This document shows positions 1 through 25,000 of a DNA stretch of 64,000 nt, in pieces. Every line of letters starts with the position of its first letter. The stretch's first letter is position 1. Below the pieces are notes generated by a model. That model did not search any database and was not told the DNA's origin. It saw only the letters and a program-made list of their open reading frames with translations. Made by a program: the position numbers and the translations under genes. Source of the DNA: Rhina ancylostomus (lineage: Eukaryota); the NCBI GenBank assembly GCA_030265395.1, contig JARFYF010000022.1:37466550-37530549 (forward strand). The letters are read 5' to 3'.

Positions 1-37
1 TGTTGATGAGATGCCCAGCTCAGCCCAGCCCAATCAG

Positions 38-87
38 GAACACAACAAACAAGACTGACATATTGCTCCATGTCACACAACTTTATT
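38..87 (-). terminator. Polyadenylation signal of nap1l4 (AATAAA 82-87) with downstream GU-rich element
   Basis: Minus strand AATAAA, followed ~27 nt later by GTCTTGTTTGTTGTGTT, with upstream TGTA motifs; implies a ~0.9 kb 3'UTR. Confidence 0.7.
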
Positions 88-966
88 AGAATACTCTGGC
101 TATTCTGTACAAATTGAAAACAGCATAGTAAGGTACATTACAACTGTGTAGAACAAGGTAAGGCTGGAGCACTCTATGCTGGACAGTACTGTGCACTGGC
201 CATAAAAATAGATGTGTGTTAAAGATTTTTACTTCCACAGGAATACTGATGATGATTCTCACAACATCCTAAATGTGCATCTGTTCTGGAGATGAAGTGG
301 ATGCAACTGGAACTAAATGTCCAGGAAATTGGATTTTTCTTCCCCCCCCACCACATGCTGGTTGGTAGTTCTGTGTAACAGTAATAAATAAGTCTATGAT
401 AATAACACTTCAGCACAGCCTCCATGTATATATAGTTTTGTATACCATCACCATTTTGGACTTCAACAGCAATGGCAATAATAGCACAGTTGGACTGGGT
501 AGGAAATTAAGCTTTTGTAATATATTTAAATATTAATGGAAAGAATGCTAAAACTCTGTAGCTGCTCACAAATATTGGGCAGCACAGGAAAGATACACTT
601 CAGAAGACTGTGAAAATCACCACTGACTCACTCAGCATAGTTGCAAGTGACAAGCGTGTAACACTCACTACATTTCAAAATACCAGTGTTCATTAGAGCT
701 GCAGAGTGCATGCTTGCTTTACCTTACAGTCGTGAACCCTTCAGCATTTTTGAAGTAGAATTGTTTTTTTTTCACTGTAAAATAAGCAAAAAGTAGGAAA
801 AGGAAAAACTGAAATTAGAGCAACCCATGCATTTTAAAATAGTGTTTAGCTTATAAGATTGTGCCGCAGTAGGGAGGTGTTGCCGCAACTGCACGAGAGT
901 ATTTTAGATACACTTTATCACATGGCATCAGTCTCTAGGCAGTGGTGTTTCCTCGGTACCACACTC

Positions 967-1005
967 CTATTGCTGCTTGCATTCAGCAGGCTGGTTGGGT
1001 TCTTT
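967..1005 (-). CDS. nap1l4: nap1l4 terminal coding exon (KEPNQPAECKQQ*)
   Basis: ttcctctcttccag|AAA GAA CCC AAC CAG CCT GCT GAA TGC AAG CAG CAA TAG. Confidence 0.95.
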   Translation of the reverse strand, partial: KEPNQPAECKQQ

Positions 1006-4000
1006 CTGGAAGAGAGGAAAATATCTGGTCAGCCAGAGTTCTCACAGGTCTACTATCTGCAGCACTGGCATGCATGCTAGCCAATGTCTGGACAATAAGA
1101 ATAGCACTGGGATTGAGGGAGAGTTAATGGAAGTAGCTGAGATGATCCTACTCATTTGGGACTTTTAGTATTAATGAAATTTTAGGAAGCCTAGTGGAAC
1201 AGAGACAAGAGGGAGGGAAGAGTACAATTACTAGAGCTCTTTTCTTACCCACCATATTTTAAAACAGCTCAGTGAACAAGAAAATGAACAATGGAATATC
1301 CCCAATAATTCCAGATCTGGCAGAGAAATGCAAATGAGTTCATTTCCAATCTCACTAACTTTTACTTGCTTGTAAAAATACAAATGGGAACAAAGATGGA
1401 GGTTTNNNNNNNNNNNNNNNNNNNNNNNNNNNNNNNNNNNNNNNNNNNNNNNNNNNNNNNNNNNNNNNNNNNNNNNNNNNNNNNNNNNNNNNNNNNNNNN
1501 NNNNNNNNNNNNNNNNNNNNNNNNNNNNNNNNNNNNNNNNNNNNNNNNGATTACTTTCAAATGCAAACAATCAGAATCTTCTCAGGAGGAATTCTAGTAA
1601 TAACCAATCATTAAAAGAATGATAACTCAGTAATACTCTCAATAACACAGGCCACACATCCTCTTATCCCTCACACCCCCACAACCCATCATCCCACCAC
1701 AGATGTCCATCAACTGCACTCCCCACTATTACCCTATAATGAGGGGCAATCAACAGTAGCTAATTAACCCAGCAGAATATATTTGTGGGTGAAAACAAGA
1801 AACCCAGAGGAAATTCATGTGAACACAGAACATGGAACTCTGCAGACAACGCTCAGTCAGCTTGAACACAGGTCCCTGAAGTTGAAGCAGCAGCACTTGC
1901 TGTTGCACCACCATGCCATCTTTCACATGACAGGAGCCATACCAAATTAATAGTTGGTACATCCCAATCCCAGCTAGCAAATATATCCTTTATCTTCAAC
2001 AAATGTAAACAGCAAAATATAAATGAACATGAGGTGCTTGATATACAATATGTACATGAGAAACAGAAAATGCTGGAAATTCTCAGGTCAGACAGCATCT
2101 GCAAAGAGAAGTGTTAAAATTTTGAGCTCTTGATCTTCCATCAGAATATATATATTTTAAAGTAATAAAAAAAAGTTAGAAGTAAGTAGACCCGCAGAGG
2201 AATTTAAATATGAGAATTTTAAATTGTACATTAAGGGACTGGATGCCCACTTAGGTCAGCAATGACAAGAATGCTAGGAGAATGTACATCGTATTGGAAA
2301 TTGATATAAAATTGTTGCGGATAAGTGGATGACAAATCCTGGGTAGGTTATGGAAGACAAGAGATTGCAGATGCTGGAGTCTGGAACAAACTGGGCAAGA
2401 GAAGATTTTGGGAAGGAGGCTGGGATGCATGGAATTCAAGTTGCAGGCATAGAATAGGAAGGAAAGCCATCGAGATGTTTTGGCTTTGATCAGATAGATG
2501 AGATAGAACCAAGTATATCATCCATTTATAGAGGACAAGGGATTAACATACTGTGGTCATGTTATAATGCCACAGAGACTGAAAGACAGATTAGGTTGCA
2601 ACTTTGATAAGAACATAACAAAAATGGGAGAAGTAGACTATGAACCTGCTCCATTCCACAAGATCATGACAAACTAACATTGGCCTCCACTTTTCAGCTC
2701 AATCCCTATCACCCTGAATTTCATTCATCCAGAAATCTCTCTCTCAACCACATATTTAATGAATCAGAACCAAAGCACTCAAGTTGAGAATTCCATACAG
2801 TGACAACTCTCAAAGAAGAAACTGCTCATCTCAATCTTAAATGGGACTCTTAATCCTGAAACTATGGCCCCAGTTCCAGATTCAACCAACAAAACCAATA
2901 TCTTCACACAATCAACCTCTATCGTCCCTACCAGAATCTTCTGCATCTCAGTAAGGTCACCTTTCTATTCTTGAATTCCAAACTTGCTCAACTTTCCTCA
3001 ATCTTTTCATCCCAACAATCACTTTCTCCAAGGATAATCAAAGTACTGCTAATGTGATCTCACTGAAGTCCTGTGCAGTTGTGGCAAGGCTATGCATACC
3101 CTCAATACCATGAGCCCTTAATTTGCATTGCAACCTTCTTTGTAGAACTTCATGGAATGCCTCGTTGAAATCAAAATACACTACATCTGCTGGTTTGCCT
3201 GTATTGACCCCATTAGATGCATCCACAAAGAACCATTCAATTTGTCAAATGCTACAGNNNNNNNNNNAATTTGGCATCCTTGGGACTTTGATGCTGCATG
3301 AGATTTATGGAACTGTTGGATGTTACTCCTATTCATAAATCCAACATTATTATTTCACTTGTTTCAAAAAAAATACAAGTTGAAAGGGAGCAGGAAATAG
3401 AACCTGGTGAGTTGAGTTTCAGCTTGCCAAACAGAATTAAACTAACCTAAAAGCACCGTCAACCCCAACTCCAGCCGCAAACCTACCCACATTCAGGTGT
3501 TCCCAACCCTCCCAAGTCCAGCTTACATTCTGGATTCTGGCCCGAGCCACATACACTCCCTCCTTGCACTGCAAACTAATGAGTGAGCCAGATGCCAAAT
3601 CAATGGGATTTATGAATTATTGGATACCAGGGTATCCGAGTTTTAAATGCACTTTTTCATAAAACTGATCTGCCTAATCACATGATGATTTGAAAGGGGC
3701 GATTCAGTGTTCTTAAAGACAGCTACCAGGAAAGAGTCAAACGTGAAAGTTTCAGGAAAGATGGATACAGATTGAAGAAAGAATATGCTTAATGTGTTGA
3801 GAGAAAAGGAACAAAATAAGCAATTTTTTGGAAACTGAGAAGCATCTTCAAGATGAGAAAACAATGTTACCTAGGCATGGGTGGTGTGGAGAATGGAGTT
3901 AGAAAGAAAGTATCAAAAATCAGTTGGTCAGCATTTTATTAGAAATGAAGTCAAACATTTGGAAGGTGGGTCCAAGGAACAAAATGAGAATGCCTAAGAA

Positions 4001-7000
4001 ATAAGGGGAGGATGGATTTTATAAATGGAACACCGGAGAAATGTTTGGGTTGGAGGAATAACGATAAGCAGAAAGCCATTGAATAAATGATTGGATCTTT
4101 TCAGCAAGAGACTTGGCCTGCTCATACTTCCCAGGTGAAATAAGGACACAGACAACTGTCAGCTGTCCTCTTGCCCCACCTTCCTAAAACCTCAGGTTAT
4201 CTTTCCACTCAAAGATTACTGTACAACTACGGGCAGTTTCGGTAGAGAAAAGCAAGACTAATGCTCAATTTGGTATAGTTAGATTTAGTGATGGATATAA
4301 CTGTCTCATATGCGCACCTCAAGCACTGAGGTTGAGTTGGATCACAGTGAACCCAACATGTGTATTTGAGAGAACAGAGTGTCATGGATGATTCTGTAAA
4401 CTTGCATCACTAAAGCCTAAAAGTGACAGTTTTATGATAGTGAATAGAGTCAATCTTCAGCAAGAGAAAACATTAAACTTTCAATGTTTTTCAGTAATCA
4501 TTTCATCTGCTGAAGGAAGAGTACACAACACATGGCCTGTACACCACATTCGGATAGATCTGTTCTGTTTGCACTCACTATCCCAGCAGCCTTGTTTCTG
4601 TCCCATATGGTCACACACCACACTGGTGGCTCGCAGATGACTTGCTAGCAGTTTCCAGAAATACCCAGGACAACCTCAACTCTTTTAAAAGGAACAACCT
4701 GTGACAGAGAATGCTGTACAGCCTGCAATTGAAGACCCAAGGCAGTTCTCAATTTCTTCCCTAAGCCAAATTCCGGGTCCCTTTCATCCCAAGTCACGCC
4801 AGGACCAGGGACCCAGAGATGAGACACACAAGGACTACATCAGACCTGGTCTCACCTTCCAAGCCCAGGTCCAGACCCACTTGTAATGTACTGCAGGCAC
4901 ACATCTGGAAGGTGGATAGCAACAAATGGAACAGTAAGGACTATGGCATTTGCAGCTAAAAACATGCATCTCCTGAGCAGTCTTGGAAATCATCTGACTA
5001 TCTGGGGGGAAAAAAAGTGTGCCAAAACAATTACTGCAATGGATCTAAACTGTGAATTACAACTCGAAGGGTAAAACTGTTCAATGCCAGAAATCCTTGC
5101 AGGGTAATCAGAATGAGTTTTGTGCAGTTTTACAGGACCTGCAGGATAGGGTAAAGGGAACAATGTACATGGTAATGGTTTGAGAGAGATTCCCACATGC
5201 ATTGCACCCTTTGTACTGCTTCCACATAGATGTGACTCCCAAAACCAAAAGTTTATCTACCACTTTGTTTACCCAGCCAGGTGCATCTTACAAGTTCAAT
5301 CTCATTAAAGGACAACATGCCAGAACATCGATCTCACTCCTCCAGCATTCACTTGGAAGGCAAGGGCATGAAACTATGTGCAACTTGTACCTGATACTTA
5401 AATAACTGAGTGTTTCTAGGACCTTGAAGGGATTTGAAGCAGAATTCCATGCTGCTAACCTAGCCCCAAACAATAAAAAGGTACAATACATCCAGCCCTG
5501 GAGTCCAAAATACAACTGATATTCACAAAATGAATGCAGTTGGATCAGCCTTATTAGCTGCAGACCAAATCAGAATTCAATTGATCTTACACCTAAGCAC
5601 GTAATACTAAGACGTGCAGTTGAATCTTCATAAATTACAGCTGGGAAGTAGGTGCGCACAGTAGTGGTGCTACACTTGCAACTTAAAGTTGAATTTCAAA
5701 TCTCACTATGGTAAGTTGCTTCCATTCAGAAAGATTGCAGAGCTGTTGTAAATAAAATCTGACACACCAATGTACTTCATGGAAGCTTTCTAATCCTATC
5801 TGGTTTAACTTGTACCTAAACAAGTTCCATAATATGTGGTTGACTTCATGCTTTGGACAAGCCACTATGTTGTGCAAAATAAAGGAGTGATGACCAAGAT
5901 ATCAGATAAAGAGAAGGCTGCAAATCCTTTCTAGCATTTGGTGGTAAAACTGGATCATTTAATCATCTATTAGCCAAAATACAAAACTCATCCTCCAATA
6001 TCCATAGGTATGCCTCATTTCATCAGTAACACAACGAAACTGAAGGGATAAAGAGTGTTATACTTTCAAGCCAGAATGCTTTTCAGATATCTCAGAAGTG
6101 TCTGCAGCTGGTGAAGACCCTTGGCTTCAGGTAAAGTGCAAAAGAAACAACCTGCCAAATACTACATACTACACCCCAAGTTGCTGAATTAGTACTTTTG
6201 TCAAATACGATTAAATATTAGGGGAAAATCAAGGGCATGGAGAACAGACAGACTAGAGATTTTTAGAAATCCAACAAAGGGCCCAGCTGTCCAGTGGACG
6301 TTCAAGGTCTCCACGGAAAGGATACAAGGCAGTTATTCCCACCTTCCCACTTCTCGCCCCCCACCACCCAAGTCCCCGCACTGGGGAGTCTAGAACTAAA
6401 GAATCACAGTCTCAGAATAGTCAGCAGAGATAAAGGAAAATATCTTTCAAATTCTCTGCCCTGGTGAGCTATGGAGCACAGTCTGAGTTCATTCAGAACA
6501 GGAATTGATATTCTACATATTTACAGGATCAGAGATCAGAGGATCTGGGCATAGTGCAAGAAAATAGCATTAAGGTGAAGGATCAGCCGTGACTTCGATG
6601 AATGGAGGAATGTGGAAAGGCCAAATGGACCATACCTGCTCCTAAATTTTATATTCTTATGATGGGCTGAAGCATTTGTTAGAAAACTGATTAATCCCAG
6701 GGACCAACCCTATTTGAGCATCATACCATGCATAAATTAGAACTAACAGGTCATACACATTCTTGCGCAAAGTAGCCTTAAACCGAATGGACGAGAACGA
6801 TGTATGGTAACCTGACCAGAGGTAGCCAAGAATTGTGGCAGACAAACAAAGAATATTTCACTTTTAATAATATATATACCTGAAGAGTAGACCACAATAC
6901 AAAGCTGAAGTACTGACATGCGTCTTAACAAAATGTATTGAGCAGATATTCCCATTTAATTATCTTAGATTCCAGCATCTAGCCAACTTGGTTAAAAATA

Positions 7001-10000
7001 AGCTTTTAATATGAAAGGGATAGTTTCCACAAAGCAGACTGGAAAATGAAATTGTATGATACAGTTACAGAGCTAACTCAAAACAATCTTAAATTACTGT
7101 AGAGACAAACATTGAAATACTGAAAAATTTCCAAATTGGTTCAGCCTTAAAATGAGTTCAATTGTGACTAAAGATACAGAGTAAAAGTTAAGCAAAAGGT
7201 GATCAGAGAAATAAGGCAGAAAATTCCCTTACCTAGAAACGTACAATTGTTTTACTGAGATATGAATTATACCTAAGCAGGGGAAAATTCAGAACAAAAT
7301 AGGTCAATATCAATGTCACTGAAATGAAATAATCAGGGCTAGGCAAACTCTAAAAAGGTATTCAAACCTACCAGATACTGAGCTTAAATAGCATAGCAAT
7401 GTTGAAGAAATGTTAGGGAGAGTCAGCAATTACTGAGACCTGATCAGATTGGATACCGATATCAATCATTAATGCCTACACAAATTACTCTTTTTTTGTA
7501 TTACAAAATACTTAAATGTCTCAAGTGTTTGGAACAGAGTCACATGTGCTGTCTCCTAAACTTAGTCCTAATAAGCATTTAAAATACATTTCAATCTTTG
7601 CTTAATAATCCAAAGAAGTCAAATTCTTGAACACAGTGTACTTTTTTGGAGCATGCTCACAATCACTTATGATTTTAATTCAAAGGTACAGCAGCCCCAG
7701 TCCCTTATCCAATATGATAGAAAATGCATACCAAAGGTAAAATGGAGATTTAAAAAAAAGTTATTTCTTCTCACAATACCATAAATAAAACACTTGAAAG
7801 CATCTACGTTGCTGTTTTGCACAATTTCCTAATCTGCACAATAATCCAGTATATCTACAAATAGAAAATAACTTGTGTTAAAAATTCAACTATTCAGTAT
7901 TAATATGAATTTTGTTTAACACATTTAGGATAAATCAAATAGTTACTCAAGAGTTTATGGTAAATCCCATTTCTCTTTGTACACTTTCAATAGGAAAGGT
8001 TGCTCTCCAACTCCACATACAAAACCAAGGGTGAAAAAAATTCTGGGAGATCTGCTTGCGCGACTGTAACTACTCTGTAACTGGACCACATATTCAATGA
8101 AGCATTTAAGGAAGAAATGACAGGGTAATTGTACTGGCACGTTATTCATTTCCATTACATATTAGTATAGCCACATCAAATATTAGGCTGGTTGTGATGA
8201 TTTATATGTCGATCTTTATCTCCTTTCAAGAAGTCCATTAAAAAGGTGTTAGATAAACAAACACAAATTGCTTTAGATAGACCAAAATGAGATAACCAAA
8301 TCACAAATTGTAAGGAAAACTGCATCATATACAGAGGATGCCTCCTTTGAAAAGGAGGCAATGAGAACATTGCCAATATGTTTTCTGAGATGAGTTAAGA
8401 AATGGTATTGAAAAAGCTGATGGCAGGTAAATCACCAGCTCTGGATGTGCATGCTAGATAGTGAGAGAATTAACTGTAGTTATTATGGAGGTGCTAGGAA
8501 AGAATAAACCTGATTTTAAATGTATTAGTTTAATATCAGTGGTTTGGTTGTTGCAGAAAACCTGCAAAATACTCTGAAGTTGATGTCAAATATGGAGTCC
8601 AATTCTGGGAATTACAATTTGGGAAGGATATATAGATGGTATTCAAGATTTGCAAGGAAGGATACAGTTTTGAGGGAATACAAACGTGTAGATGAGACTT
8701 TTTGTAATGTTCCTTTTGGTTCTTTAGTCAATTACCTCAAATCTGGGGCCTATGCTTAATGACCCTTTAATCACTGGAAAACTTCCATCTGAACTCAATA
8801 TTCAACTCAAGTCTTCCTCAGCCTTCCACTGCAAGAAGAACTCAACTGAAAATAGTTAGCGCACTGTACTATGCAAAGATTACAAAAAAATCACCATGCA
8901 GTTTTACTAAGGAAAGGTTAAAACAGCTGCAAAAGAACTGTACAAGAGTAAAAGTACAAACCATTTCAGAAGTCCCCAAGATTGACTTGGGAATTGTTCA
9001 TTGTAAGGACAGCATTTAACTGTGTTCTCTTTTAACATCGTTAAGTGAAATTTTAACTAACACTTCTGGACTATGCTTTGCTTCATTTTAATCTAATAAA
9101 AGTTATTTACCAGTTAGATCAGTATTGATTTGGTGGATTAAGTCTTGTATTAGTGGAATCAAATAAGGAAAATGTCATTACTAGGACACAGAAGTGCACT
9201 TAAGATTCTAAAACAAAAGTTGAAAAAACTGGTTGATCATTAACTGCAGTTTACCTTTTAAAAAGGTTCAGATTCAGTTTGGGGTATTGTGGATAGGAAG
9301 ATAAAACTCCTTCCCAATTTTCTGAATTGAATTATATTTGAGCAGCTGTTTTGAAAGACAACTTCAGCAGGACATGTATTGATGGAACAGCCTTTGCTAA
9401 AACCCAAGTTTTGTCCTAAAGTACTGACCACCTAGAAACAATAAATGAAAATCTCAATTTTGAGACTGACTGTTATGGCCTGACTTGACTTTTGTAAAAA
9501 CCAGTTTTGTGCAAGAAAAAAAAACCTGTCAAGGCTTTAAAAGATCAAAGCTCTTGAAACATTCCAACCAATACAAAGTAATAGTCCACAGTTACTGCAA
9601 TTTAGGACCACACTAAGCCTTGGGGAAGAGAAACAACAATCTATTAAAGGCCTTGTGTGGTTAAGGTTGATTTATTTGAAATTGAGGAATGACTAATTGC
9701 TTCAGAAGCTCAAGGCAACATATCCAAATACCAATAGTTAAAACTATAAAAGGATAACGATTTACCTTAAATCACTACATGCTGTTATTTACTTGTTTAT
9801 CCTTTTATATTTGGATATGTACATACTACACGAGTACACGAAAATAAACAAGAACAAAAAAAAAATCAAAAGGTCTACACAAACCCTAAAAATGAATTAT
9901 GGTGGCTTTTTATATAAATCAACATCCAATTGATTTTAAACACAAGTTGATGTTGAGCTCTGCATACACCAAAGAAATATTCCAATGTTACAGAAATTAC

Positions 10001-13000
10001 TGAAAATCCTTTCAATTGGTGTATGGTAACCTGAACTTTAGAGTACTGGAATTAAAAACTAGGAGCCTAAAAACAAAATCTGAGATTTGCAAATTGTAAA
10101 ATTAAAATCAGTAAATGCAATTCAAAAAATTATTTAAGAAGAAATAAAAACTTTTTTTAATATTTTAAAATCTCAGATTTACTACTGGGCCTAGCTTCCA
10201 CCCAACTTCCAAGGAATCTTAATGCCCTTAGTGTAATTAGGTGATGAATACAAAAAGGTCAAAAGGTGTTGACACAACTCCAGATGCCTTAAAATAATGA
10301 CCAGTGATGGAAATAAAACAAATGTTTCTGGGCAAACGTGGTCAACTTTTTTTTAAATATACACACAGCTAGATCAAGTTAGATCATACATAAATTCAGG
10401 AAATATTTTCAATACATTATGCAAACCAGATAAATCGAAGATCAATTGACTAAATCTGTACATTCCTTTATACACAGCCTCCTTCTCATTGTCTTTTTGC
10501 TGAATCTTTTAAGTTTCAAAAACCTGGAATCGGAGGCTGCCAAGTTTAGACCAAACATAACTTCAAGCAGCATCCAGGTTTCTCTTGCAACATTTTAATA
10601 AGGGAACAAAGATGTGATGCCTATCATTGCATGAATAGCAGCTCGCATGAACAATTGTATTTTTGAGCAACTCTGAAATTCAATAGTTGAAAATTTTATG
10701 ATTCAATGTACTAGAAATTTAATTATTTTGAACTGTAGGAACATACATAAAGGATAAATTGAATGCTAATAACAAGCAACAGGTAAATTGAAATCCTTTA
10801 GCTGACTGACCTGCTGAGTATTGCCAGCATTCTCTGTTTAGTTTCAGATTTTCAGCACCTGACGATGCTTGCTGCTGTTTAAATTAAGACTAAGATGGCT
10901 GCATTTTTAATTTGAAGCTAACAAAAACTCACTTTAGGATCAATCTCAGCATCGTCATCTTCATCTCCTTCTTCCTCATCATCATCATCCTGTAAAGGGA
11001 ATGTTTCAGATTATTAAAGTAGACATGGCATTAAACAGAACTTGATGTCACAAATTCAAGACAACTTGAAGTGGATGAAACAAATTTGTAATTATTGTAA
11101 CAAAAGCCACAATAATTGACTACAGCCCCCACCCCACCACCTTCTTAAGGCACAGCTTCATCAGGATCTTCACCTAGTCGGAAGGCAAAGTGTCATTCTT
11201 AATACCTCATGAAGAACACATACATCATACAGCAAGATCTTCCCAATACTGAATTCCTCACATTATACTGCGTGCCATTCTCTTGGGAATCACTTAACCA
11301 ATCTACATCTCATCGAATACTCTTCACATCTTAAAAATATCCCAGTTTTGTATCTCCTGCAAATTTTAAAATATTACATCCAATTTGCTAAGTTATTGAA
11401 ACAGATTATAAACTGGAGCACAAACACTGATCCTTGTGGCAATCAATTAGTCACATTCTGAAAATGACACCAATATCCCTTTCTTTTTTCGTTAATCCAC
11501 ACACATTCATGCTGATATTTTAGCCCAATTCTTTGAGACCTAATAGTGTGCAATAATCCAATGCGTGACATCTAATCAAGTGCCTTCAAGATCCTAATAT
11601 ACTAGACTTGCTGGATCAGAACTTGGTTATCTGAGCTCAGCCCAATAGGGCCGGAGTATGTTTTGTACAAGTTTGATATGAATATCAAAAAATAATGTCG
11701 TCTTCAGGCTTGGGTTGGTTTTGATGGGCCACAATCAGCTTTGGTATTAATTTTATACACGAGCGGATATCTGCACTGGATTTCCTTTATCGAACTGTGA
11801 TTACATTCTCAAATAACAGATTTGTCAAATGCTATTTTCCTTTCATAAAACTGTCTGGACTCTGCTAAAGTGTATTGCGAATTTCCAAGTGCCCTGCTAT
11901 CACATCCTTAATTTTAATCACGGTCAGTAACAATATGAGAGGTAACAATTATAGCAAATGCAAACTTGTACTTACAAAGTGATAGGAGAAGCTATTAAGC
12001 CCATCCACACCAACTTACAGGTAAAGAATATATCATTTATATTGCTTCTGGTGTAATGAGGTTAACTTAAGAGCAAGGAAACATGCAATTTTCATGAGTA
12101 AATAAAACCTGTTAAGGTAAACTGGAGACTTGTGAAAACATTAGTAGAGTCAATCTTACTCAAATTAAGGAAATCAAGACAATTCCAATTGTTATTCTTT
12201 AAAGGGCAAATTCAAGACAAAAGCATATTTAAGATTAAAGGAAGTTTTAAAATAAAAAAGGTTGGTAGTTATATCAGCCAAAGAAATGAAACTTACTGTA
12301 TAATTACTTACCTCCTCTTCACCTTCTTCTCCTTCCTCCACTTCATACTGGGGGGAAAAAAAAAGCACATTTCGTATGAAAGCTATAAGCTTATTAAAAA
12401 GGTCAGAGGTATAATTTTGAAACTGTAAAGCAATCTTCAATAAAAAAGATCAAACTAAAAAAACGTGAACATACTTCACATGCACTAAAGCTGTTCATTA
12501 GGATCCTCAATACTGAGAAACTAATTTTTCTGGATGTTGACACGGATTCTGTAGAACTTGCTTCCAAAGAATTTAATTTGATAAGCCAAAACCGAATTCA
12601 ACTACGAGATGATTGTATTCATATAGCGAGCCAATGAAAAGTTTTGCATTAAACCAAAAGGGCTGAACTGACTTGTGGCGGCTGTCAGCTAGAGTCTAGC
12701 TGGCCCCAAACACATCCTGGAATGACATGGCTCCACAGCAATTCTAGATGTACCGAGTGCCAGATGCATCTTCACTCAGCTCCACTGCTGAAGTCAGAGT
12801 CCAGCAGCTGAGCTCAATTGTACAGGAACTCCATTACTTCAATATGCAAAATTTGCCTCTCTGATCCTGTACCAGATATGATTCATATTGGAATCCCTAT
12901 TCATTGGAATGGGGTTTCCACTTAGATTAGGAAGAGAGTTTTTTTGCGCTTTATTTCAGTGCATTATTTATTCATGACAATGTATTTTATTAGAAAATTT

Positions 13001-16000
13001 TCTTAAAAATTAGTTTACTTTGCTATCTGCCAACTTTACACAATTAGTTCATTAGCAATCACTGCAATAGTTGTAAGTGAACATAAATATAACCCAATAA
13101 CTTCCAGTACTGTAAAATCAACAGTCAGCCCAATCTACAATGAATGTGTTGAACGTATAGCTAGTAAACTGAACTATAAAGAACTAGTATCAGGGTACAA
13201 ATCACTGACAATAAGGAGACTTTTCCTTAATATTTTATCCAAAAACTTGTGTTTAGTGAACTTTTCCATAGTGACCAAACATTAATTTTGTTTTCAGATG
13301 GAACAAAGCAAATGAAAATAATCTAATAACAAACTAATCTGTTTTGGATTGATGACATTAATAAAATCATTAACAGCAATAAAGTGTGTCAGATACTATT
13401 AAGACCAATAACTGAAGTGTTGTATTTTATTTAACAGGCTTGTGTAAACATATTGAATTACAAGTGCAGAAAGTAATAGTAAATTGATAAACTGTACTAA
13501 ATTAATATAAACAGCCCACAAAGGAAAATAACCTGTGATATAGCTAAGAGCAAACTACAAATGTCCTTCAACAGATGGTGAAGTCACAACTATTTTTTTT
13601 GGAGCATCTAATAAATTCATATTTATATTTAAATTAAAAATATAANNNNNNNNNNNNNNNNNNNNNNNNNNNNNNNNNNNNNNNNNNNNNNNNNNNNNNN
13701 NNNNNTCTCAGCATTCTTGGATGAATTAATGTAACTGGATCTCTAAAGGAACTATCAAAGCTCCTCTGCTTCAGACTGTTCATAATCTCCAAACGCTTGT
13801 TCCTTTCAGTTTAATATTGTGACCAAGCATTTAAACCATCAAAACAAATACAAAGCATTTAGCAATTGACAAGTGATCCACCCTCACAACCTGCTGCCAT
13901 TAGTGTGGCAGATAGTGCAGCTTCATATCCTCTAGATTTTTAATGCAAAGCTTACACTCATCCACGTTCAAGATCCACCTCTGACCACATGCCCATTAAA
14001 TATACATAGAACACCACAGCACAGTACAGGCCCTTCAGCCCACAATGTTGTGCCAACATTTTATCCTGCTCTAAGATCCATATAACCCTTCAAACCCCAC
14101 ATAGTCCCCTATTTTTCTATCATTCACGTGTCGATCTTTCTTAAAAGTCCCAAATGTATCTGCCCCCACAACCTCTGCTGGCAGTGTATTCCACGCACCC
14201 ACCACTCTTTGTGTAAAGAATTTACCCCTGACATCCCCTGTATACCTTCCTCCAATCACCTTAAAATTATGTCCCCTCATGTTAGCCATTGTCACCCTGG
14301 GAAAAAGTTTCTGACTGTCCACTCAATCTATGCCTCTTATCATCTTGTACACATATACATGTCCATTAAATAATCATTTTCTTCCCTTTAAAGTATTTGG
14401 CTTTATGTTGTGTTAAAAACAGCCTGAAGAATATTGCATCTGATATTATGCTGAATGATATTTCTTCTTAAAACAGACTTTAGGGAAATTGAGTCAATCC
14501 ATTTAAATAACTAAGTGATTTAAAAAGAGCCACTGTGTTCAGGTCACCAAACCTAGACAACAAAGCTTCAAAACCTGAAAAATGGCAAATCCATTTATCT
14601 GTGAACAGTTTTCTTACTTGAACATTTTTACCAGTCTATTATAGTCCAGTCTATAGACAGCATCTATTCCCTGCCCAATTTGATCCCAGATTTGATGGGA
14701 GCTTTTGATTAGAAAATCATCTAGCTCATGAAAGGACTCCTGACCAATTTCACTATAGAACCAAAAATCATATTTTGTTTTAATGCTCATGCAAGGATTT
14801 TGGCAAGATATTAAGATATTCTTCTATACTGTTATCTCATTCTGCTACCCTTTCAACCCCTTGCTTATTGAGAATCTATCTTTGCCTTAAAAAATATTCA
14901 AAGTCACCACTTACACTACTCCAATGAAGAGAGCTCCAAACACTCAGACTCAGTAAGGGAAAATAAAATCATCTCATCTGTCTGAAGGGTGACCCCATAT
15001 TTTCAAAACAGTAATTCCAAGTCCTAGTTGCTCCCATAGAGGAAACATCCTTTCCACATCCATCTTATCAATACTGCTTAGGATCTTGTATGTTCCAATC
15101 AAGTTGCCTCTTTCTTCAAAGTTCCAGCAGATATCACCCCAGCATGTCCAATGTTCCCTTATAAGACAATCCACACATTCCAGGTATTACTCTACTAAAC
15201 TTCTAATGAAATCCTTCCTAAAGTAAGGAGACCAATTCTGTACAGTACTCCAAATGAGGTCTCAAAGTCCTAACTTAAGCATAATATCCTTATTTTTGTA
15301 TTCAACTTCCCTCACTATGATAACATTGTTACCTTTTCTCATTTTTGCTATATCTGCCTAAGAGCTTTTTGCAAATGATACATGACACCTAGATCACTCA
15401 GCATTTCAACAGCTCTACAGTAAAATGGGACAATTTCATATTTTCCCACATTGAACTCCCTTTGCCAGATCTCTGTCTACTTCACAACTTTCTGACTCAT
15501 CTTTGTGTCAATGTTAGCAACCATTCAGTGCCTTCATCCATGTTATTAATGTAAATTGTATAAAGTTGAGGCCCCAGCGCCAGACCCAGTTTAGCCTTCT
15601 GCCTATTTTTGAAAGCCTTTCCCCATGCATCTTCCAGATACCCATTGTTGTGCTTAGTATTAAAGAAGTTAAACAAAGGTAGATAAGGGCTAGACCACTG
15701 AATTCTGAGGATTTCCATTCAACATGCATTCCCATGTTCCCAATTCTGACATCATTCTATCAATAACTGGCTGATGGTTCCTTTCACCAAGTATTCATTA
15801 TCAGCCTTAAACCACTGCTATTTGTTTCAGTAATGGTCTTTCATGAGAAGTTTTATCAAAGGCATTTTTAGAAACCCAAGTGGAATATTTAGAACAGCAG
15901 AGGTACAGCTTGTAAAGTTGCTGCCCGACAGCTCCAGTGGCCTGGGTTCGATTCTGACCTCCAGTGCTGCCTGTGGAGAGTTCACACATTCTATTGGGGA

Positions 16001-19000
16001 CCACTTGCATTTCTTCTGGGTATTTGAGATTCCTTCCACATTCCAAAGACGTGCAAGTCGGTAGGTTAATTGGTCACCAAGTTACCAGGAGTGTGTAGGT
16101 GTGTGGCAGAATCTGGGGGAGTTGATGCCAATAAGGGCAGAATAAAATGGATGAGTATAAATGAGTGCTTGATGGTCATTACTAAAGGGCCTGTTTTCAT
16201 ACTATATGACTCCAATGTCCAACTAGATTTTCTCTAAGTATTGACACAGTTTGTCAGGTAGTCTTTTCTAATCCAAAGACATCTTCGGCCATTTAGATTC
16301 TTCTACAGATTTTCAAGTTTTCCCCTTGTAATTACTTCATTATTTTAATGGCTGGCCTTTGATTGATCAGTCTGCATATGTATCGATGTCATCTGACCTC
16401 TTTTGCCAATGAGTACTTAAGCTAGCTTCAAATCCAGTGTCACCTCCTCTGTGTTCAATTTATTCATACTGACTGAATAAATTGTTTTTACTGTTCTGAA
16501 ATAGACACCAACTGTTCCAATTGATTCATTTTCTTTCAGTCCTGTTACTGAAAAACAGAATCTTTGCATTGGTATATCACCAATTGGGTTGTGAATTCAT
16601 CATGAACACCCAGTATTCAATATCATAGTTACTTAGTTTCACCTCAGTGAAACTCAAGGTTCAACTATTTTCTATTTTAAAAGTTTCTGTTAAAATTACA
16701 AGAAATATACTCACATCTTCATCATCATCTATGGCTTCTCCAGTAAAATAGAGAACAGCTCGAGGGACTATCCGCTCACGGAAAAAGTGCCCAATTTCAA
16801 AATCTGTGGCTAAATTAAATTCTGAATCTTCATCCTAGGAAAATAAAAACAAAACCCTGTTCGTAATTACCCTTAGTCACTATGTAATAGTCCATTTGCA
16901 CTAATATTATGATTCAGGCAAGCTCTTGACTTTACAGCAGAATCACAAGGGATATCAGCTTAGCCTGCAAACTAGGAACTATTAACAAGGCACAGATAGG
17001 AATATCAGTGGATTAACTTAATTTCACCAACTGAGATTATATTCAAGGCCATATTTTATTAATTTATTAACTCTCTCATTCATATTATTGAGAAATAGGT
17101 ATTTGTGCAGAAGCCATCACTACAAGTAATGAAATAAAATTTGATAAAATGTTACTTCCATTAAAAGTCATGATGCACATTGGATCATTGATAAATTCAG
17201 AAACACAATTTGATCATTAACAATATTGTCCTTATGGTCTCAGTGGCATTGTTACAAGACCTCAGTCAAAGGTTGATAGAAAAGTTAAATCATAATATGT
17301 TAATTATTCCATTTCATAAACATGCCTATACCACTGATTGTTGTTTGAGGACAGGAAATAGTGATTATCTTTTCTGTAAAGATTTTTTTCAAGATCTGGG
17401 CATTTTATTGCCCATCCTGAGGTGTTCCTTGAGAAAGGGGTGATAAAACCTGTCAGAACCTTTCAGAGTCAACTACTGAAGTCTACAAAAGGAATAATGA
17501 ACAGGCTGACCCAATTTCTTTGAAATTTAATTGTAGATCAAAGTATTAATTCCTTTCTTCTCATGAACCCCGTGAAAACACTTACCATTTCTGCCTCACC
17601 ATGTCCAGAAACTGAAAAATCAGAAGAAAAAAAAATCAGTTTATTCTTTGCAATGCAGATCTCTTGGGGGCGAGGAAGAGATGTTCCAAGCAATGTCCCG
17701 TGAACTAACAATTTTTAAAATAATTTTTTAAAAAATCAGACCATGGTAATACTGTCCTGCTAAAACCTACATGCCAGGCAGTAACCATCTTAAAAAACAC
17801 CTCAGTACCTATCTACAACACATTCAGTTCTCTCTTTTCCTCGAACTGCGAGCTCCTCCCACACACCAATGTATTTCATAAACGGAGAGAAATGCAAAAA
17901 ATTAAAAATATTTGGGAAACTACTGGATTGTAAAAGAATAAACCCACATTAAGCTTTTTATATCATATACCAAAATTATGCTGCATGATTAAAAGGTCCA
18001 AAATGCAAAACATTTAATTCAATATACAATGACTGACAGCTCGGACAACCAATATCACACTGTTCAGCATCAAAAGTAACAGATCTTTTAAAAGGTTTTT
18101 AAAAAGCATTTTACCTCATGTATGCTGAATACATTAATCTTGTTCACATCTGCCCAAGTGAGATAGAACTGCATGCTCAATAATTTGGCAACTATTCAGA
18201 AGTGCAAGTATGCCTATAATTAATGTAGTTCCAAATCCATACCAGGCAGTCTAGATCATTGCTAAATATTCCCATTTTCAAAATTCCAATTTTGCTTTTC
18301 TTGCCTATCATTTAACTAATGCATAACACTTTGAACAAAGTACTTTAAAAATCAGTGCAGGGATTTCATTGTGCGCACATATATCAGGCACTTAGTCCAA
18401 AGGCCTTTAAGTTTGATAGTTGTGGAAAAAATTCTTTAATGCAAATAAGGATCATTACACTGTAGCTCAATTATATCTGGGATTAGTAATCAAATGGAGG
18501 ATGTAACCTTAAATTTTTTTTGGGAAATCGAAATGTGTTTCGAAGAATAAAATGAATTAAGACCTTAACTATACATTGAATCTATGAGCACATCTAATTT
18601 CTGATGCTTCAAAGTTGAGCTTGTAGGTAACAAGTTGCTGCAATGCAGCTTTTACGAATGTAAGAACCTCAGTTTAGAAACAATAGTGAAACTGATTCAT
18701 CCAAACTGCTTTAACACACGCTTTAAATCAGAATCGGATCCTCTATGAATAATCTCAGCACTGAAGCATGCCAAATGCCTACTCCAGCTGATGAGTCAAG
18801 ATTAACATGGTTACCACCAAGCCAATATCAGCAGTAAAGCACCGCTACTTCCTGTTGGCTGACAATCTTTGCTGTAATTAGAAGCATGTTAAACATCCAC
18901 ACCCCTGTTAACTATTTCTCACATGCACTTTATGAGCTGATTAAATTCCTCTCTATCAGTTCAATTGAAGGCTTGGCTGATCAAATTCCACTTATACCTT

Positions 19001-22000
19001 AATCATTCTCCTTGTTGCTAGGAGAATGCCATATTCATTCTTAAACTCGAACATTCCTTAATGGGCGTGAAAGCTAACAAGGGCATAGGAAACAAGTTAT
19101 TAAGGAGGGCTCATTAAACATGTAAACTGGCAAGATTATCGAAATAGATTATTGTATTTGGTGGATAAAAGAGATTTGTAAAGCTTGCCTTTAATCATTT
19201 TGTCGGAATAGACCAAATCTGTTGGATTAGGAAACAACTGCTTCCCCTTTAAGTACATTAGGTACTTCATGCATTAAGTTGTTTGGAAGGCAAAGAAAGG
19301 GTATGGAGATTATTTATGAGGTTTTGTGTTTTTAACACATTTCATATTACCCAGAATTATTGTCAAACGTCAAACTGATTTCTTCCAATCTGAATGTGGC
19401 CATCAAGTTTTGAATTAGCCTAAAAGTACAAGTATTCCTTTGTTTTAACTTACAATATGAANNNNNNNNNNNNNNNNNNNNNNNNNNNNNNNNNNNNNNN
19501 NNNNNNNNNNNNNNNNNNNNNNNNNNNNNNNNNNNNNNNNNNNNNNNNNNNNNNNNNNNNNTACAATATGAAGAATTCAGATGTTTTACACAAATCCACT
19601 TTTAAATAATGCTACTGGTCCTTGAAGTGGTTTCCACTTTTACTTATAGAGTTTCACAGTATTGCTTTCAGATTAATGTTTCTAATTTAAAACATTGCAT
19701 TGGGGAAAACCCAATGGTGAGAGCAGTACATCAACAGGTACCAGATCAAGCAATGATGCATTAGAACTTCCTCTTCCTCAGTCTTTCTACGATTAGTATT
19801 ATTCTTGGGCTCTTAATAACCACATCCTATTTCTTCATTTAACATGTCACATTTTATAAAATACCAAAGTTTACAGCACTGTTATCATTTTAGAAGATAA
19901 ATGAATAGCTAAAACGATAGGATTGAGGTGTGGAGATAGTCAAGCCTTTAAAATCTATGTCTTCAGAAATAGTCTGGGATTCTGTAGGTGTAAATAATGT
20001 GCCCGTGTTTAACTTCTTTCAAAAAGGATCTTCCTGCAAGTTAAGCTGGGTAGAAAACCATGTAAAAGATTTCACAGGTCTGTTTTCTGCCCCATTCCGA
20101 AACACATAATTGACTTGAATGTGCAAAAAAATTAGTTTTGGCTAACATTCATTTAATTTGTACTACTAAAACTGCTATTCTAAAATCATATGGAAAGTCT
20201 TAGAAGAATTTCATTTAAACTAATTTGGCATTTCAGCTCAAGGACTAATTCAAATTCAACCCATACTAAAGAGATCAGTCTTCCACAGCCCACTGTGAAG
20301 ACATTGATGTATTTCAACACAATTCCTATTGTGCACCAATATCTCCAAATTGCTACTAATTTAGAACTACTCCTGTTAATTCAATTAAACCTAAATCTTT
20401 GATGATAGGAAATGGATTATGGTCCTTTAAATTATATGGTTTTGCATTGTGACATAGAAAGAAGCAAATCCTATTCCCAGCTTGGCACAAAATAGAGGGA
20501 GCAATTGAAACAAACCAGATAATAAATTGTACATTTTAAGAAACCAAACATGTGCAGGTGCTCTTCATTGTGCTCTTCATTGTGCTCTACCAATTTTCAT
20601 GTGAATAATACTCTGCAGCNNNNNNNNNNNNNNNNNNNNNNNNNNNNNNNNNNNNNNNNNNNNNNNNNNNNNNNNNNNNNNNNNNNNNNNNNNNNNNNNN
20701 NNNNNNNNNNNNNNNNNNNNNNNNNNNNNNNNNNNNNNNNNNNNNNNNNNNNNNNNNNNNNNNNNNNNNNNNNNNNNNNNNNNNNNNNNNNNNNNNNNNN
20801 NNNNNNNNNNNNNNNNNNNNNNNNNNNNNNNNNNNNNNNNNNNNNNNNNNNNNNNNNNNNNNNNNNNNNNNNNNNNNNNNNNNNNNNNNNNNNNNNNNNN
20901 NNNNNNNNNNNNNNNNNNNNNNNNNNNNNNNNNNNNNNNNNNNNNNNNNNNNNNNNNNNNNNNNNNNNNNNNNNNNNNNNNNNNNNNTATTGTAACCTTT
21001 AATTGGTGAGTGGGAGAACACAAGGGCAAATGGGTTTTTCCACTGATGATTCACCAAATCCAGGAACTGTACATTTTAGAATCCAATAAAATACACTGTA
21101 CTGCACTGTATCTAGCATTTCCTTTTCTCCCCCCTGCAACACAAATATTTATGTTTCACAGAATGTCCTTTTACTAGTTGATTCTTAATAAAAGAGTCGA
21201 CAGCTAGTGGTAGTGAATAGAAGAGAGCTCTTTTTGGGCAACCTGATTCAGTATTAATTACTCCAAGTGAAGGACGAAGTTATTGTGGTGGAAAGCACCT
21301 TTTATTCTGTGGTAGGATACACATACCATTAGCCTCGCTTCATACTTATAAGACTACCAATGTTATGAGCAATGCTGAGTGAGATACCTCAAAATAATTT
21401 CTGAATTCTGTTACTTTTCATGCTTATTACAAACAGTTAAGATTTCAGGTCCAGAAACCTTCATCAGCATTTTGTTTTGATTTCAGATTTCCAGCATCTG
21501 CAGTTTTTTCAATTTTTTACAACCACTTTTCATGTGCCTCAGATACTCATTCCATCCAAAGCCACTCCCAACTCCAAACCATATTTCCCCTCATGACAAC
21601 CTATCCCACACTCCGCTTCCCCAATAGCTCCTTCTGACCTCCAAGTTCAAGAGGCCCATGGATTTCTTTTTGCCACAAAATTTTGACCAGTTAGTCATCT
21701 GCACCCAGTTTTACTTTTTCCATTAACAAATTATTCCTTCATTTAGCTCATCTTCTGCAGTGTTAAATTTAACCCCCAACTACAAACACCACTTAGTATA
21801 ATTGATCCAGAATGCAATGTTTAAAAATTACTGACTGCTATTCTTTAGTTTCTCCTTTCCATCCTTCACGAAGATAGCCCACATCCCCTGCCAGCTTTCA
21901 ATGCTTTTGTTCTATTCAACCTTCTCTTTCAATATTCTGTACTTAAGTTTTAATACGTCATTGAGACCTGTGTCCATCACTTGAATATCTTTATCCAGGA

Positions 22001-25000
22001 CGTGATCTACCAGAGAACTCAGTCCACATCAGTAATGCCCTCTGTAACAAATACTTCCTACTTGTGCTACTTTTCCTCTCCTCTCCCATCCCCAACCAAA
22101 TTCTTTCAGCATCTGCACAAGACCACTTGGTTCGGCTTCTGCTTATCCTAATACAGATAGAACATTTGTTGCAGTAGCTTCTTTCCTTGACCCAGCATAT
22201 TTCTTAACCACAATCATTTTTGACCATTTTCCTTATCTGTGCCATTTATGCATCATTCATATGCTGGGAACAATTTTTGCACATGTTGTGACTTGCCACT
22301 CCATTTACAAGCTGCTTTATGGACTTATAAAATACCATACAAGGCAATAAAACAGCTTTTTGATAGATAAATGTGCATGAGGCAAACAGATGCAATTAAT
22401 TCATAAATGTCCTTTCGCTTCTTCCTCCAAAAAGAATTCAACTGTAAAATTGAGAGCCCCATTTACAGATGATGATAGAATTAGAACTTGCTACCTTTTT
22501 AAAAGAGTATTTTTTTAAAAATAAAAACAGGTTGCTTTCTCAATTAAGTTATAGATGAAAACTTGCATGGAATCAGGCAACTGATAAAAATATTCATTTC
22601 AATGACCGTCAGGCGACTGGACACGAGGTGCAACTCAGAATTCATACCAGTCATAAGGCAATATAACTGTCTTTAAAGGTTATTTCATCAGTTCAAGTTG
22701 GCAGGTCATGTCCAATTCAATTGTTATTTTTCCAAAGGAAAGACACCAAATAATCCAGAGATTTCTTAATCTTCAATTCTGTACGCTGTATTGCAGAAAA
22801 AGCCAATTTATCATGTGTAATTTTCTATTAATCTTTAGAAGGATTTCCAGAGACATTAAACTTAACTGTTTAAGAGAAAATTAAACACATACAGTGCAAA
22901 TCTACTTTGCTATGCTGTGGATGCAACATTGAATCTATACCTTCAAGTAGGTCACCCATCGATAATATTGGCTCTCTCTCCATTACCACAGCCTGACCTG
23001 CAGGGCACAGCCTACAGCTGTGCATTTTAGATGGAGTTCTCACTTTCTAACTGCCCTCATTTCATAACTTTTGTTCACATCTCTCCAACTGCCCCCATTA
23101 ATCTAGCAACCAAATAACCATGTCTACAATATATCCCCACAGCAATCCCTGGTCTCATCCTATTCGAGACAATTTCCTTTGCCCTACCCAACACTTCCCC
23201 ATAATCTCAGTAACTTAAAACTAGTTTCTCTTTCCCAGTTCTGACAAAGGGTTTTTGAGCTGAAACAACTCTAGTTTCTCTTTCCATAGATGCTGCCTGA
23301 CTTGCTGAATATTTCTAGCACTTTATTTTCATCTCAGATTTCCAGTATCTGCAGTTTTAAAATTTTCACTTATTGCAAAAATGCCTTTGTTTTGTTAACA
23401 GTGGACTTGCATATGTACTGTACAGACTGTTTTGGTTCTATTTAAATTCATAAACTGGACTTTCACTATTTTACTCAGTTTTTGGGAATGGTATTTTGCT
23501 TTTGACTAACTAATTACAAAAAATTCTCACCTTTTACTGGATTAAAGAAGTTGAAGAAGGAATCATTGGGTACTTGTTTGGTGATGGTTCGGACAGTCCC
23601 TCTGCCTTTGTGCTTCTGTTTCTTTTTAATAGTTTTCACAGTTATATTCTTTCCTTTCTTCCAGTCAATAGTACACCTGTTAAGAAGTTGATGATTAGCC
23701 TCATTCTAAGCTAAAGCAGAGCAACACAACTCAGCATCAGTGCACCACTGGGGACCGGACTCTAATTAAATTTGGCTATTACTCATTGTTCTAACATTTG
23801 AAACAATTGCATTGATGGTAACAGATGGAAAGAAAATAGGGTAAATCTGCAGATTTTATGGCAAACCATATTCAATTATGCCTACATGATTACTATTGTA
23901 ATTCAATACATAATATGACTGAAATGAGTCCAGTTTAATCTTTTGACTGTGACAATATAATACAACTAACTCAATCTTGGGTTAAAAATAGAACCACAGA
24001 GCATAAGCTATAGCTAAAAATTAATCATAAGATCAGACCTGTATAAATCAATTTATCTTGCAGGTTTTGCTCAATAGTGTAGCTGGCCAGGTATCCTTAA
24101 CAAGTGCAGCATTTCTGTTTTCTTTCTTGGTGCTTCCATTTTTGTTTTATTTGAAATGGTTCACATTAATTCCAACTTAAACCATTACAATTAAAGTATG
24201 TTCAAATATAATGGTTGCTAAAAATTGTAAGTATTTTGGGTACTTAAATTTGAACCCCTCCTCCTTGGTTCAAGAAATAGTGAATAATGACAACTAATTT
24301 CAACAGCGGCAAAATTATGTTCCCAACTCTGAAGAGGTCAGAGGTACCATAAACATCCAACCTACAGAGTGCCAGGATTAATATAGCACTGGAATGGAAC
24401 CTGATGCAAGACAAGAGACAAGTAACAGGTTACGAACAGTGCAAGACCAAGTAACTGAGTTTACTTGGAAAGATACATTTGCGGATAGAAAGATGTCATT
24501 TTGCACATTACTAATGCAATAGTACTGGCTTCATATTAAGGCTATAAATATTATATTTTAATATATTATTCAAATAGTAGAGGAAAAAGGAAATTTGTCA
24601 ATTAAGTGGCCAATTAATCTCTGAGGAGAATGCCAGTGAGTACAGGTGTAAGCAAATTGATAAAAATAGAGCTTGGTTACATTTTATCATTTGAATCTCA
24701 GCTATAGGAAAATGTTACAGAAATCTGCAGCTTGGTCTCGGATTTATTTTTAATTATTTTACTGCATGGACCATCGATTTCAAGTCAGAGTCATAGTAAC
24801 TGGCTGTCCAATGCCAACAAAATGTCGGTAACAAAATGTCAGGTCAATTATGACTTTTCACTCACCCTACAAAGTCAACTATCTCTGGGCCCTCAAAGGA
24901 GAAAGGATCAGTCTCATCTGGTTCGGACTTCATCTTGTAGGTTTTGGTTAATACTGAGTTTGTGAAGTAATCATTTGGTTCAAAGTGAAATTCTAGTGTA

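Follow-up and report, generated by a model that had tools for sequence, protein, structure and literature searches.

We identified a real, conserved, stop-carrying exon of 40 nt in the NAP1L4 gene of the ray Rhina ancylostomus, and this exon is most likely a cassette that decides whether NAP1L4 retains its CKQQ tail, a predicted farnesylation site. The gene lies on the minus strand of the 64,000-nt stretch of contig JARFYF010000022.1 that we analysed (the whole stretch is called the window), and its relevant features are collected in Table 1. The exon (7272-7233, minus strand) starts with GTA TAA, ends with TAG and is flanked by AG and GT, and all of its coordinates, together with the distance of 34 nt between its stop and the last junction, agree with a preliminary description of this DNA. 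In-silico splicing reproduced the two C-termini claimed in that description, i.e., DPKV when the exon is included and KEPNQPAECKQQ when it is skipped, and retention of the intron gave DPKVSFC. Upon inclusion, the 12 codons of the tail become 3' UTR. The 151-nt region around the exon has a single match in the genome, namely itself, no tandem repeats were found within window positions 1-20000, and a motif scan found neither RBFOX nor QKI motifs within 250 nt of the exon. At window positions ~1700-3650 and 10800-10860, many unrelated contigs stack with loose ends, as expected of interspersed intron repeats.

Table 1. Features of the NAP1L4 gene around its stop-carrying exon (window positions)
Feature	Position	Strand	Description
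Host gene NAP1L4	76..50815 (first coding bases not included)	minus	Pfam NAP exons, tblastn exon chain, tree
Upstream acidic coding exon	10933..10989	minus	57 nt, phase 0, ends DPK, donor GTGAGT; joined to the 40-nt exon in X14
Polypyrimidine tract and TAG acceptor	7273..7297	minus	AG at 7274-7273; pyrimidines at 15/20 positions before the acceptor
40-nt stop-carrying exon	7233..7272	minus	codon 1 is V, codon 2 is a stop; sequence and spliced assemblies
TAA stop of the short (DPKV) form	7267..7269	minus	34 nt upstream of the last junction (7233/1005)
Donor GTAAGG of the 40-nt exon	7227..7232	minus	used in assemblies X14 and X22
Coding start of the last exon	967..1005	minus	KEPNQPAECKQQ and stop; CaaX-type CKQQ at 981-970; translated only upon skipping of the 40-nt exon
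Second acceptor, 4 nt into the last exon (exon start 1001)	998..1005	minus	frameshifted tail NPTSLL...ETDAM
3' UTR of the last exon	76..966	minus	one AATAAA at 87-82 (motif scan); X14 and X22 contigs span 1005-76 with no further joint

A genome-wide profile search with Pfam PF00956 (NAP) found exons of this domain in the window and at one other multi-exon locus, on contig C29, whose best named matches are all NAP1L1. A single weak NAP-domain match (E 6e-4) at C56:17285335-17285448 is perhaps another family member. In a phylogenetic tree of 25 rows, hand-chosen to span the clades, the window gene is placed inside the NAP1L4 clade (100/99), among chondrichthyan NAP1L4 sequences, and it is 99% identical to Heterodontus NAP1L4 over 321 columns.

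Spliced inclusion of the exon was observed in relatives of the ray. Four of the 24 listed runs were aligned to the window, all of them assembled contigs, presumably of RNA, from other, related organisms. The joint 7233>1005 is present in two of the four runs (X14 and X22) and the joint 10933>7272 in one (X14), where a single 2207-nt contig joins 12312>10989, 10933>7272 and 7233>1005, the latter two joints having clean GT-AG ends; thus, in related animals the exon is included between its flanking exons, as seen at both joints in X14 and at the 3' joint in X22. In the X14 contig, the exon has no differences over the 38 listed bases, versus 65 substitutions and 59 gap positions in the 930-nt last exon, a degree of conservation that carries little weight when taken alone (P about 0.06). 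The skip joint 10933>1005 was found in none of the four runs, of which X1 and X12 have no coverage of the last exon. Therefore, of the three junctions named for checking in the preliminary description, the two for inclusion were recovered in the relatives' assemblies but the one for skipping was not, and skipping rests on annotated isoforms; since contigs drop rare variants, its absence from the four runs is not proof that it does not occur. The included form is the assembled one (depth 80 and 219), and these contigs, which yield no inclusion ratio, suggest that inclusion is the main form in the two informative samples, X14 and X22. Two catshark gene models lend independent support, as they read the 40-nt exon off-frame, with the first 8 residues (YNSYLSKT) equal to the frame-1 translation of the window. 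A strong acceptor-like site is also present in the 3' UTR at window positions 800-774 (minus strand), and it is unused in both contigs covering the 3' UTR.

The same two C-termini are annotated for NAP1L4 of other jawed vertebrates. The rows considered here are the named NAP1L4 matches listed (up to 15 members per cluster), sorted into clades by hand on the basis of their source names. They include no unnamed fragments, non-NAP rows or amphibian rows, are mostly predicted gene models and are not independent of one another. Among the rows listed, forms that add one residue and stop account for 7 of the 24 chondrichthyan, 4 of the 15 ray-finned, 4 of the 8 coelacanth, 4 of the 23 reptile/bird and 15 of the 61 mammalian rows, and CKQQ-type forms account for 7, 6, 4, 10 and 27 rows of the same groups, respectively. 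Both forms proposed in the preliminary description are thus annotated in cartilaginous and ray-finned fish, coelacanth, reptiles and mammals, and annotated short/long pairs, in which one form ends in a Cxxx motif and the other does not, occur in skates, rays, chimaera, bichirs, eel, coelacanth, snakes and mammals. When 23 same-species pairs were picked by hand (14 of NAP1L4 and nine of NAP1L1), in 22 of them the short form matched the long one exactly up to its final residue. The codon before the stop mostly encodes V, but A in coelacanth (three of four rows) and conger, and E in bichirs; hence the name "V-stop" given to the exon in the preliminary description holds for one residue plus a stop, but not for an invariant V. 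Outside cartilaginous fish this evidence consists of protein ends rather than exon DNA. Since NAP1L4 and its paralog NAP1L1 each have annotated long and short forms across jawed vertebrates, these likely reflect an old splicing switch.

A further annotated C-terminus uses the second acceptor in the last exon. The 27-residue tail that it yields is annotated in Narcine and Pristiophorus, and the CKQQ motif is lost there too. The +4 frame of the window reproduces the tails of these two models (P0093 and P0094), and because both join DPK directly to the +4 acceptor, they imply splicing past the 40-nt exon. The odd tails of P0002, P0089 and P0091 and the LCTRYK end of P0001 have no convincing match in the window or in the 10 kb downstream of it.

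The paralog NAP1L1 appears to have the same arrangement. On contig C29 of this genome, a 9.7-kb intron separates a DPK-ending exon from a KDPNPPSECKQQ exon, and between these DPK and CKQQ exons we found, from sequence alone, a 38-nt candidate exon (AG/GTT TAA...TAG/GTAAGG; C29:43252990-43252953, minus strand). It has QKI-type motifs on both sides, two downstream (33 and 63 nt) and one upstream, and a 250-nt scan found no motif that it has in common with the NAP1L4 exon. Among the NAP1L1 rows listed, V-stop forms are found in 6 of 30 chondrichthyan, 7 of 86 ray-finned and 6 of 30 amphibian rows (sharks, teleosts and frogs), and the frog short/long pairs differ by exactly 10 residues, matching the X1 and X2 forms of Xenopus Nap1. 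No such form was found among the amniote rows listed (0/82 reptile/bird and 0/90 mammal, 0/172 together), 12 of the bird rows being partial, ending at K and hence uninformative. The mammalian NAP1L1 rows P0456, P0466, P0541 and P0556 (primate, shrew, marsupial and mole) have a common CaaX-less tail ending in FQRWLQ, which is possibly a later replacement route to unfarnesylated NAP1L1. A possible short intron, still speculative, was noted in the NAP1L1 3' UTR at C29:43250370-43250300 (minus strand), ~35 nt past the CKQQ stop; if it were spliced, the long form would be safe, and the V-stop would lie more than 50 nt from the last junction.

An OSBP-family gene, the NAP1L gene and a PH-domain gene occur in the same order and on the same strand at 37.44-37.66 Mb of C22, the contig of the window, and at 43.24-43.37 Mb of C29. 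This identity of order and strand indicates that NAP1L1 and NAP1L4 arose by block duplication, which we infer to be a whole-genome duplication. We take the PH-domain neighbour to be PHLDA and the OSBP-family genes to be OSBPL5/8; a PDB search with the PH-domain neighbour gave no match. Since NAP1L1 shows the same stop-exon arrangement, the arrangement likely predates the NAP1L1/NAP1L4 duplication. Thus, the preliminary description was right that the arrangement is old, but its date, the jawed-vertebrate ancestor, is probably too young. The probable history is that of an exon that existed before the block duplication, has been retained by NAP1L4 of every lineage sampled, and has been lost or silenced by NAP1L1 of amniotes.

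Alternatively, the stop exons of NAP1L1 and NAP1L4 could have been gained independently, in which case the switch would be real in each gene but not older than the duplication. This is in line with the DNA comparison, as the similarity of the two exons is not significant: their acceptor regions agree at 18 of 32 positions, versus 17-19 for seven control acceptors, and the alignment is unconvincing. It is also in line with the outgroup, for which no short form was found; three invertebrate-like rows all end in ECKQQ, and no row from lamprey, hagfish or amphioxus is present among the named matches listed. A metagenome scan with a ray NAP1L4 returned 12 loci of 25-54% identity, i.e., distant relatives, none useful for vertebrate exon structure. 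However, the two exons occupy the same intron position in the same phase, are of similar size (40 and 38 nt), begin with a V codon and TAA, and end with TAG/GTAAGG, and this agreement in position, phase, size and first two codons makes a common origin likely. Moreover, pseudo-exons with a stop as the second codon are rare under the same strict filter, by which the 38-nt candidate is the sole match in the 9.7-kb NAP1L1 intron; elsewhere there is one match in 28 kb of other NAP1L4 introns, one in 53 kb of the opposite strand and, apart from the real exon, one in the NAP1L4 intron; a V codon at the start is absent from the two filter-passing pseudo-exons whose start is known. These counts are to be read with the fact that the filter was defined after the 38-nt candidate had been noticed, and a looser filter admits a second V-stop candidate (27-80 nt) in the same NAP1L1 intron. 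We therefore regard two separate gains as somewhat unlikely and retain a common origin as the preferred reading.

Three other explanations bear on the NAP1L4 exon itself. Proteins ending in V might be read-through artefacts of the upstream GT donor, the exon being a chance pseudo-exon, and many database rows are indeed retention artefacts that start with V (e.g., P0030 and P0143). However, retention at this locus would give DPKVSFC rather than DPKV, the exon is spliced in X14 and X22, and A- and E-ending forms exist, for which read-through of a GT donor is ruled out; we consider this explanation hardly credible, and for this locus the joints in X14 and X22 refute it. With its in-frame stop followed by a spliced intron, the exon might instead be a poison exon that lowers NAP1L4 output through nonsense-mediated decay. 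Such decay is expected when a stop precedes the last exon junction by more than ~50 nt. In this case the stop lies only 34 nt from it, and the two contigs covering the last exon have no downstream joint: they run unbroken from 1005 to 76, near the only AATAAA, which places the start of the last exon at 1005, and the 50-nt rule then predicts no decay. If the acceptor-like site at 774 were used, the stop would lie more than 50 nt from a junction and the V-stop form would become a decay target, but the included form is assembled at the depths given above without a 3' UTR joint, and the short protein is reported as the most abundant one in frog eggs (PMC10987829). A decay function is thus very unlikely. 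A more substantial alternative is that the exon is nearly constitutive in cartilaginous fish, with NAP1L4 mostly lacking the CaaX tail and the CKQQ form a minor, unregulated by-product. This would agree with the missing skip joint, with the unbroken passage of the X14 contig through the exon, and with the skate models, since the short form P0076 is backed by Logan and 66 contigs but the long form P0078 by two contigs and not by Logan. On the other hand, rare variants are dropped from contigs, human NAP1L4b is reported to be expressed (PMC12315405), and in every lineage sampled the tail codons have stayed open, with CKQQ at their end. An open frame in codons that inclusion turns into 3' UTR implies that the skipped form has been under selection. 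A nearly constitutive exon is thus unlikely, and a cassette exon remains our preferred reading.

Splicing is known to set the prenylation motif of other proteins, e.g., KRAS4A/4B, CDC42 and lamin A/C, via alternative C-terminal exons, with KRAS and CDC42 having two CaaX motifs each. Whereas these genes swap motifs or use alternative last exons, in NAP1L4 a tiny internal exon removes the motif and the 3' UTR is common to both forms. A close likeness is the IDX exon of HRAS (p19 versus p21 H-Ras; PMC4631104), a short stop cassette just before the CAAX exon whose inclusion removes the motif, as is the case here. However, IDX is 82 nt long and is followed by two more exons (4A and 4B) in an unrelated gene, whereas the NAP1L4 exon adds one residue and is followed by one junction, 34 nt from the stop. 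In the orthologous human gene, CKQQ is described in the longer isoform NAP1L4b (Q99733-2) only, not in the canonical one, and NAP1L4b is expressed in Th1 cells (PMC12315405). The exon, the mechanism and the conservation are not described in the parts of that account available, and our own comparison with human NAP1L4 is by protein rather than exon DNA. For the paralog in Xenopus laevis, Nap1 (NAP1L1) X1 is ten residues longer than X2 and carries a farnesyl-cysteine as determined by mass spectrometry, whereas X2, the most abundant form in eggs, lacks the cysteine (PMC10987829 and its preprint); this matches the frog V-stop pairs. However, it is a passing mention in a glutamylation study, with no exon named and no link to NAP1L4 in the accessible text (PMC10987829). 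An exon described as new and specific to gorilla NAP1L4 (bioRxiv 2021.11.10.468034) was set aside as lineage-specific, and the accessible portion of PMC12948261 contains nothing on isoforms or farnesylation. Both isoforms are thus already annotated in databases, and a difference between isoforms in farnesylation has been published for Xenopus Nap1 and deduced for human NAP1L4b. The literature deals with the isoforms of human NAP1L4 and of frog NAP1L1 separately and in passing, and a full-text search, which covered few subscription journals, found no paper that treats the exon, how far it is conserved, or its occurrence in the two paralogs.

According to the mechanism that we propose, inclusion of the exon would add one residue and a stop, so that the protein loses the CaaX-type tail but not its acidic domain and the mRNA retains the 3' UTR, and skipping would restore the CKQQ tail. 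The included mRNA is expected to escape nonsense-mediated decay given the position of its stop, the long form would be farnesylated as in frog and human, and the ratio of the two forms may set the level of NAP1 prenylation. Few proteins have a Cxxx motif across eukaryotes, and NAP1 is one of them (PMC12609287). Farnesylation of the CKQQ-bearing long form, in line with the preliminary description, is in print (PMC12315405 and PMC10987829); it has been reported for human NAP1L1 and NAP1L4, in the case of NAP1L4b by deduction (PMC12315405). In human cardiomyocytes, prenylation of NAP1 is reported to affect its nuclear residence and its partners during mitosis, and the C383S mutant is reported to have remained in the nucleus for twice as long (286 versus 143 min) and to have completed division in 33% of cases, with n=3-9 nuclei (bioRxiv 2024.07.01.601625).

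It is possible, if doubtful, that one tiny stop exon older than the NAP1L1/NAP1L4 duplication constitutes a regulated switch of NAP1 farnesylation in vertebrates, kept in NAP1L4 from shark to mammal and lost from amniote NAP1L1. Work on "NAP1L4" needs to state the isoform used. Should both paralogs have retained one exon since early vertebrates, a selected role of the unfarnesylated form would follow, and the exon would offer a single handle on NAP1 prenylation, by a splice-blocking oligo or a small deletion, that spares other prenylated proteins. If the switch is real, the "canonical" short NAP1L4 would be a natural equivalent of the prenyl-dead C383S mutant, and cells, for instance those of heart muscle, would adjust mitotic nuclear exit and proliferation by including the exon.
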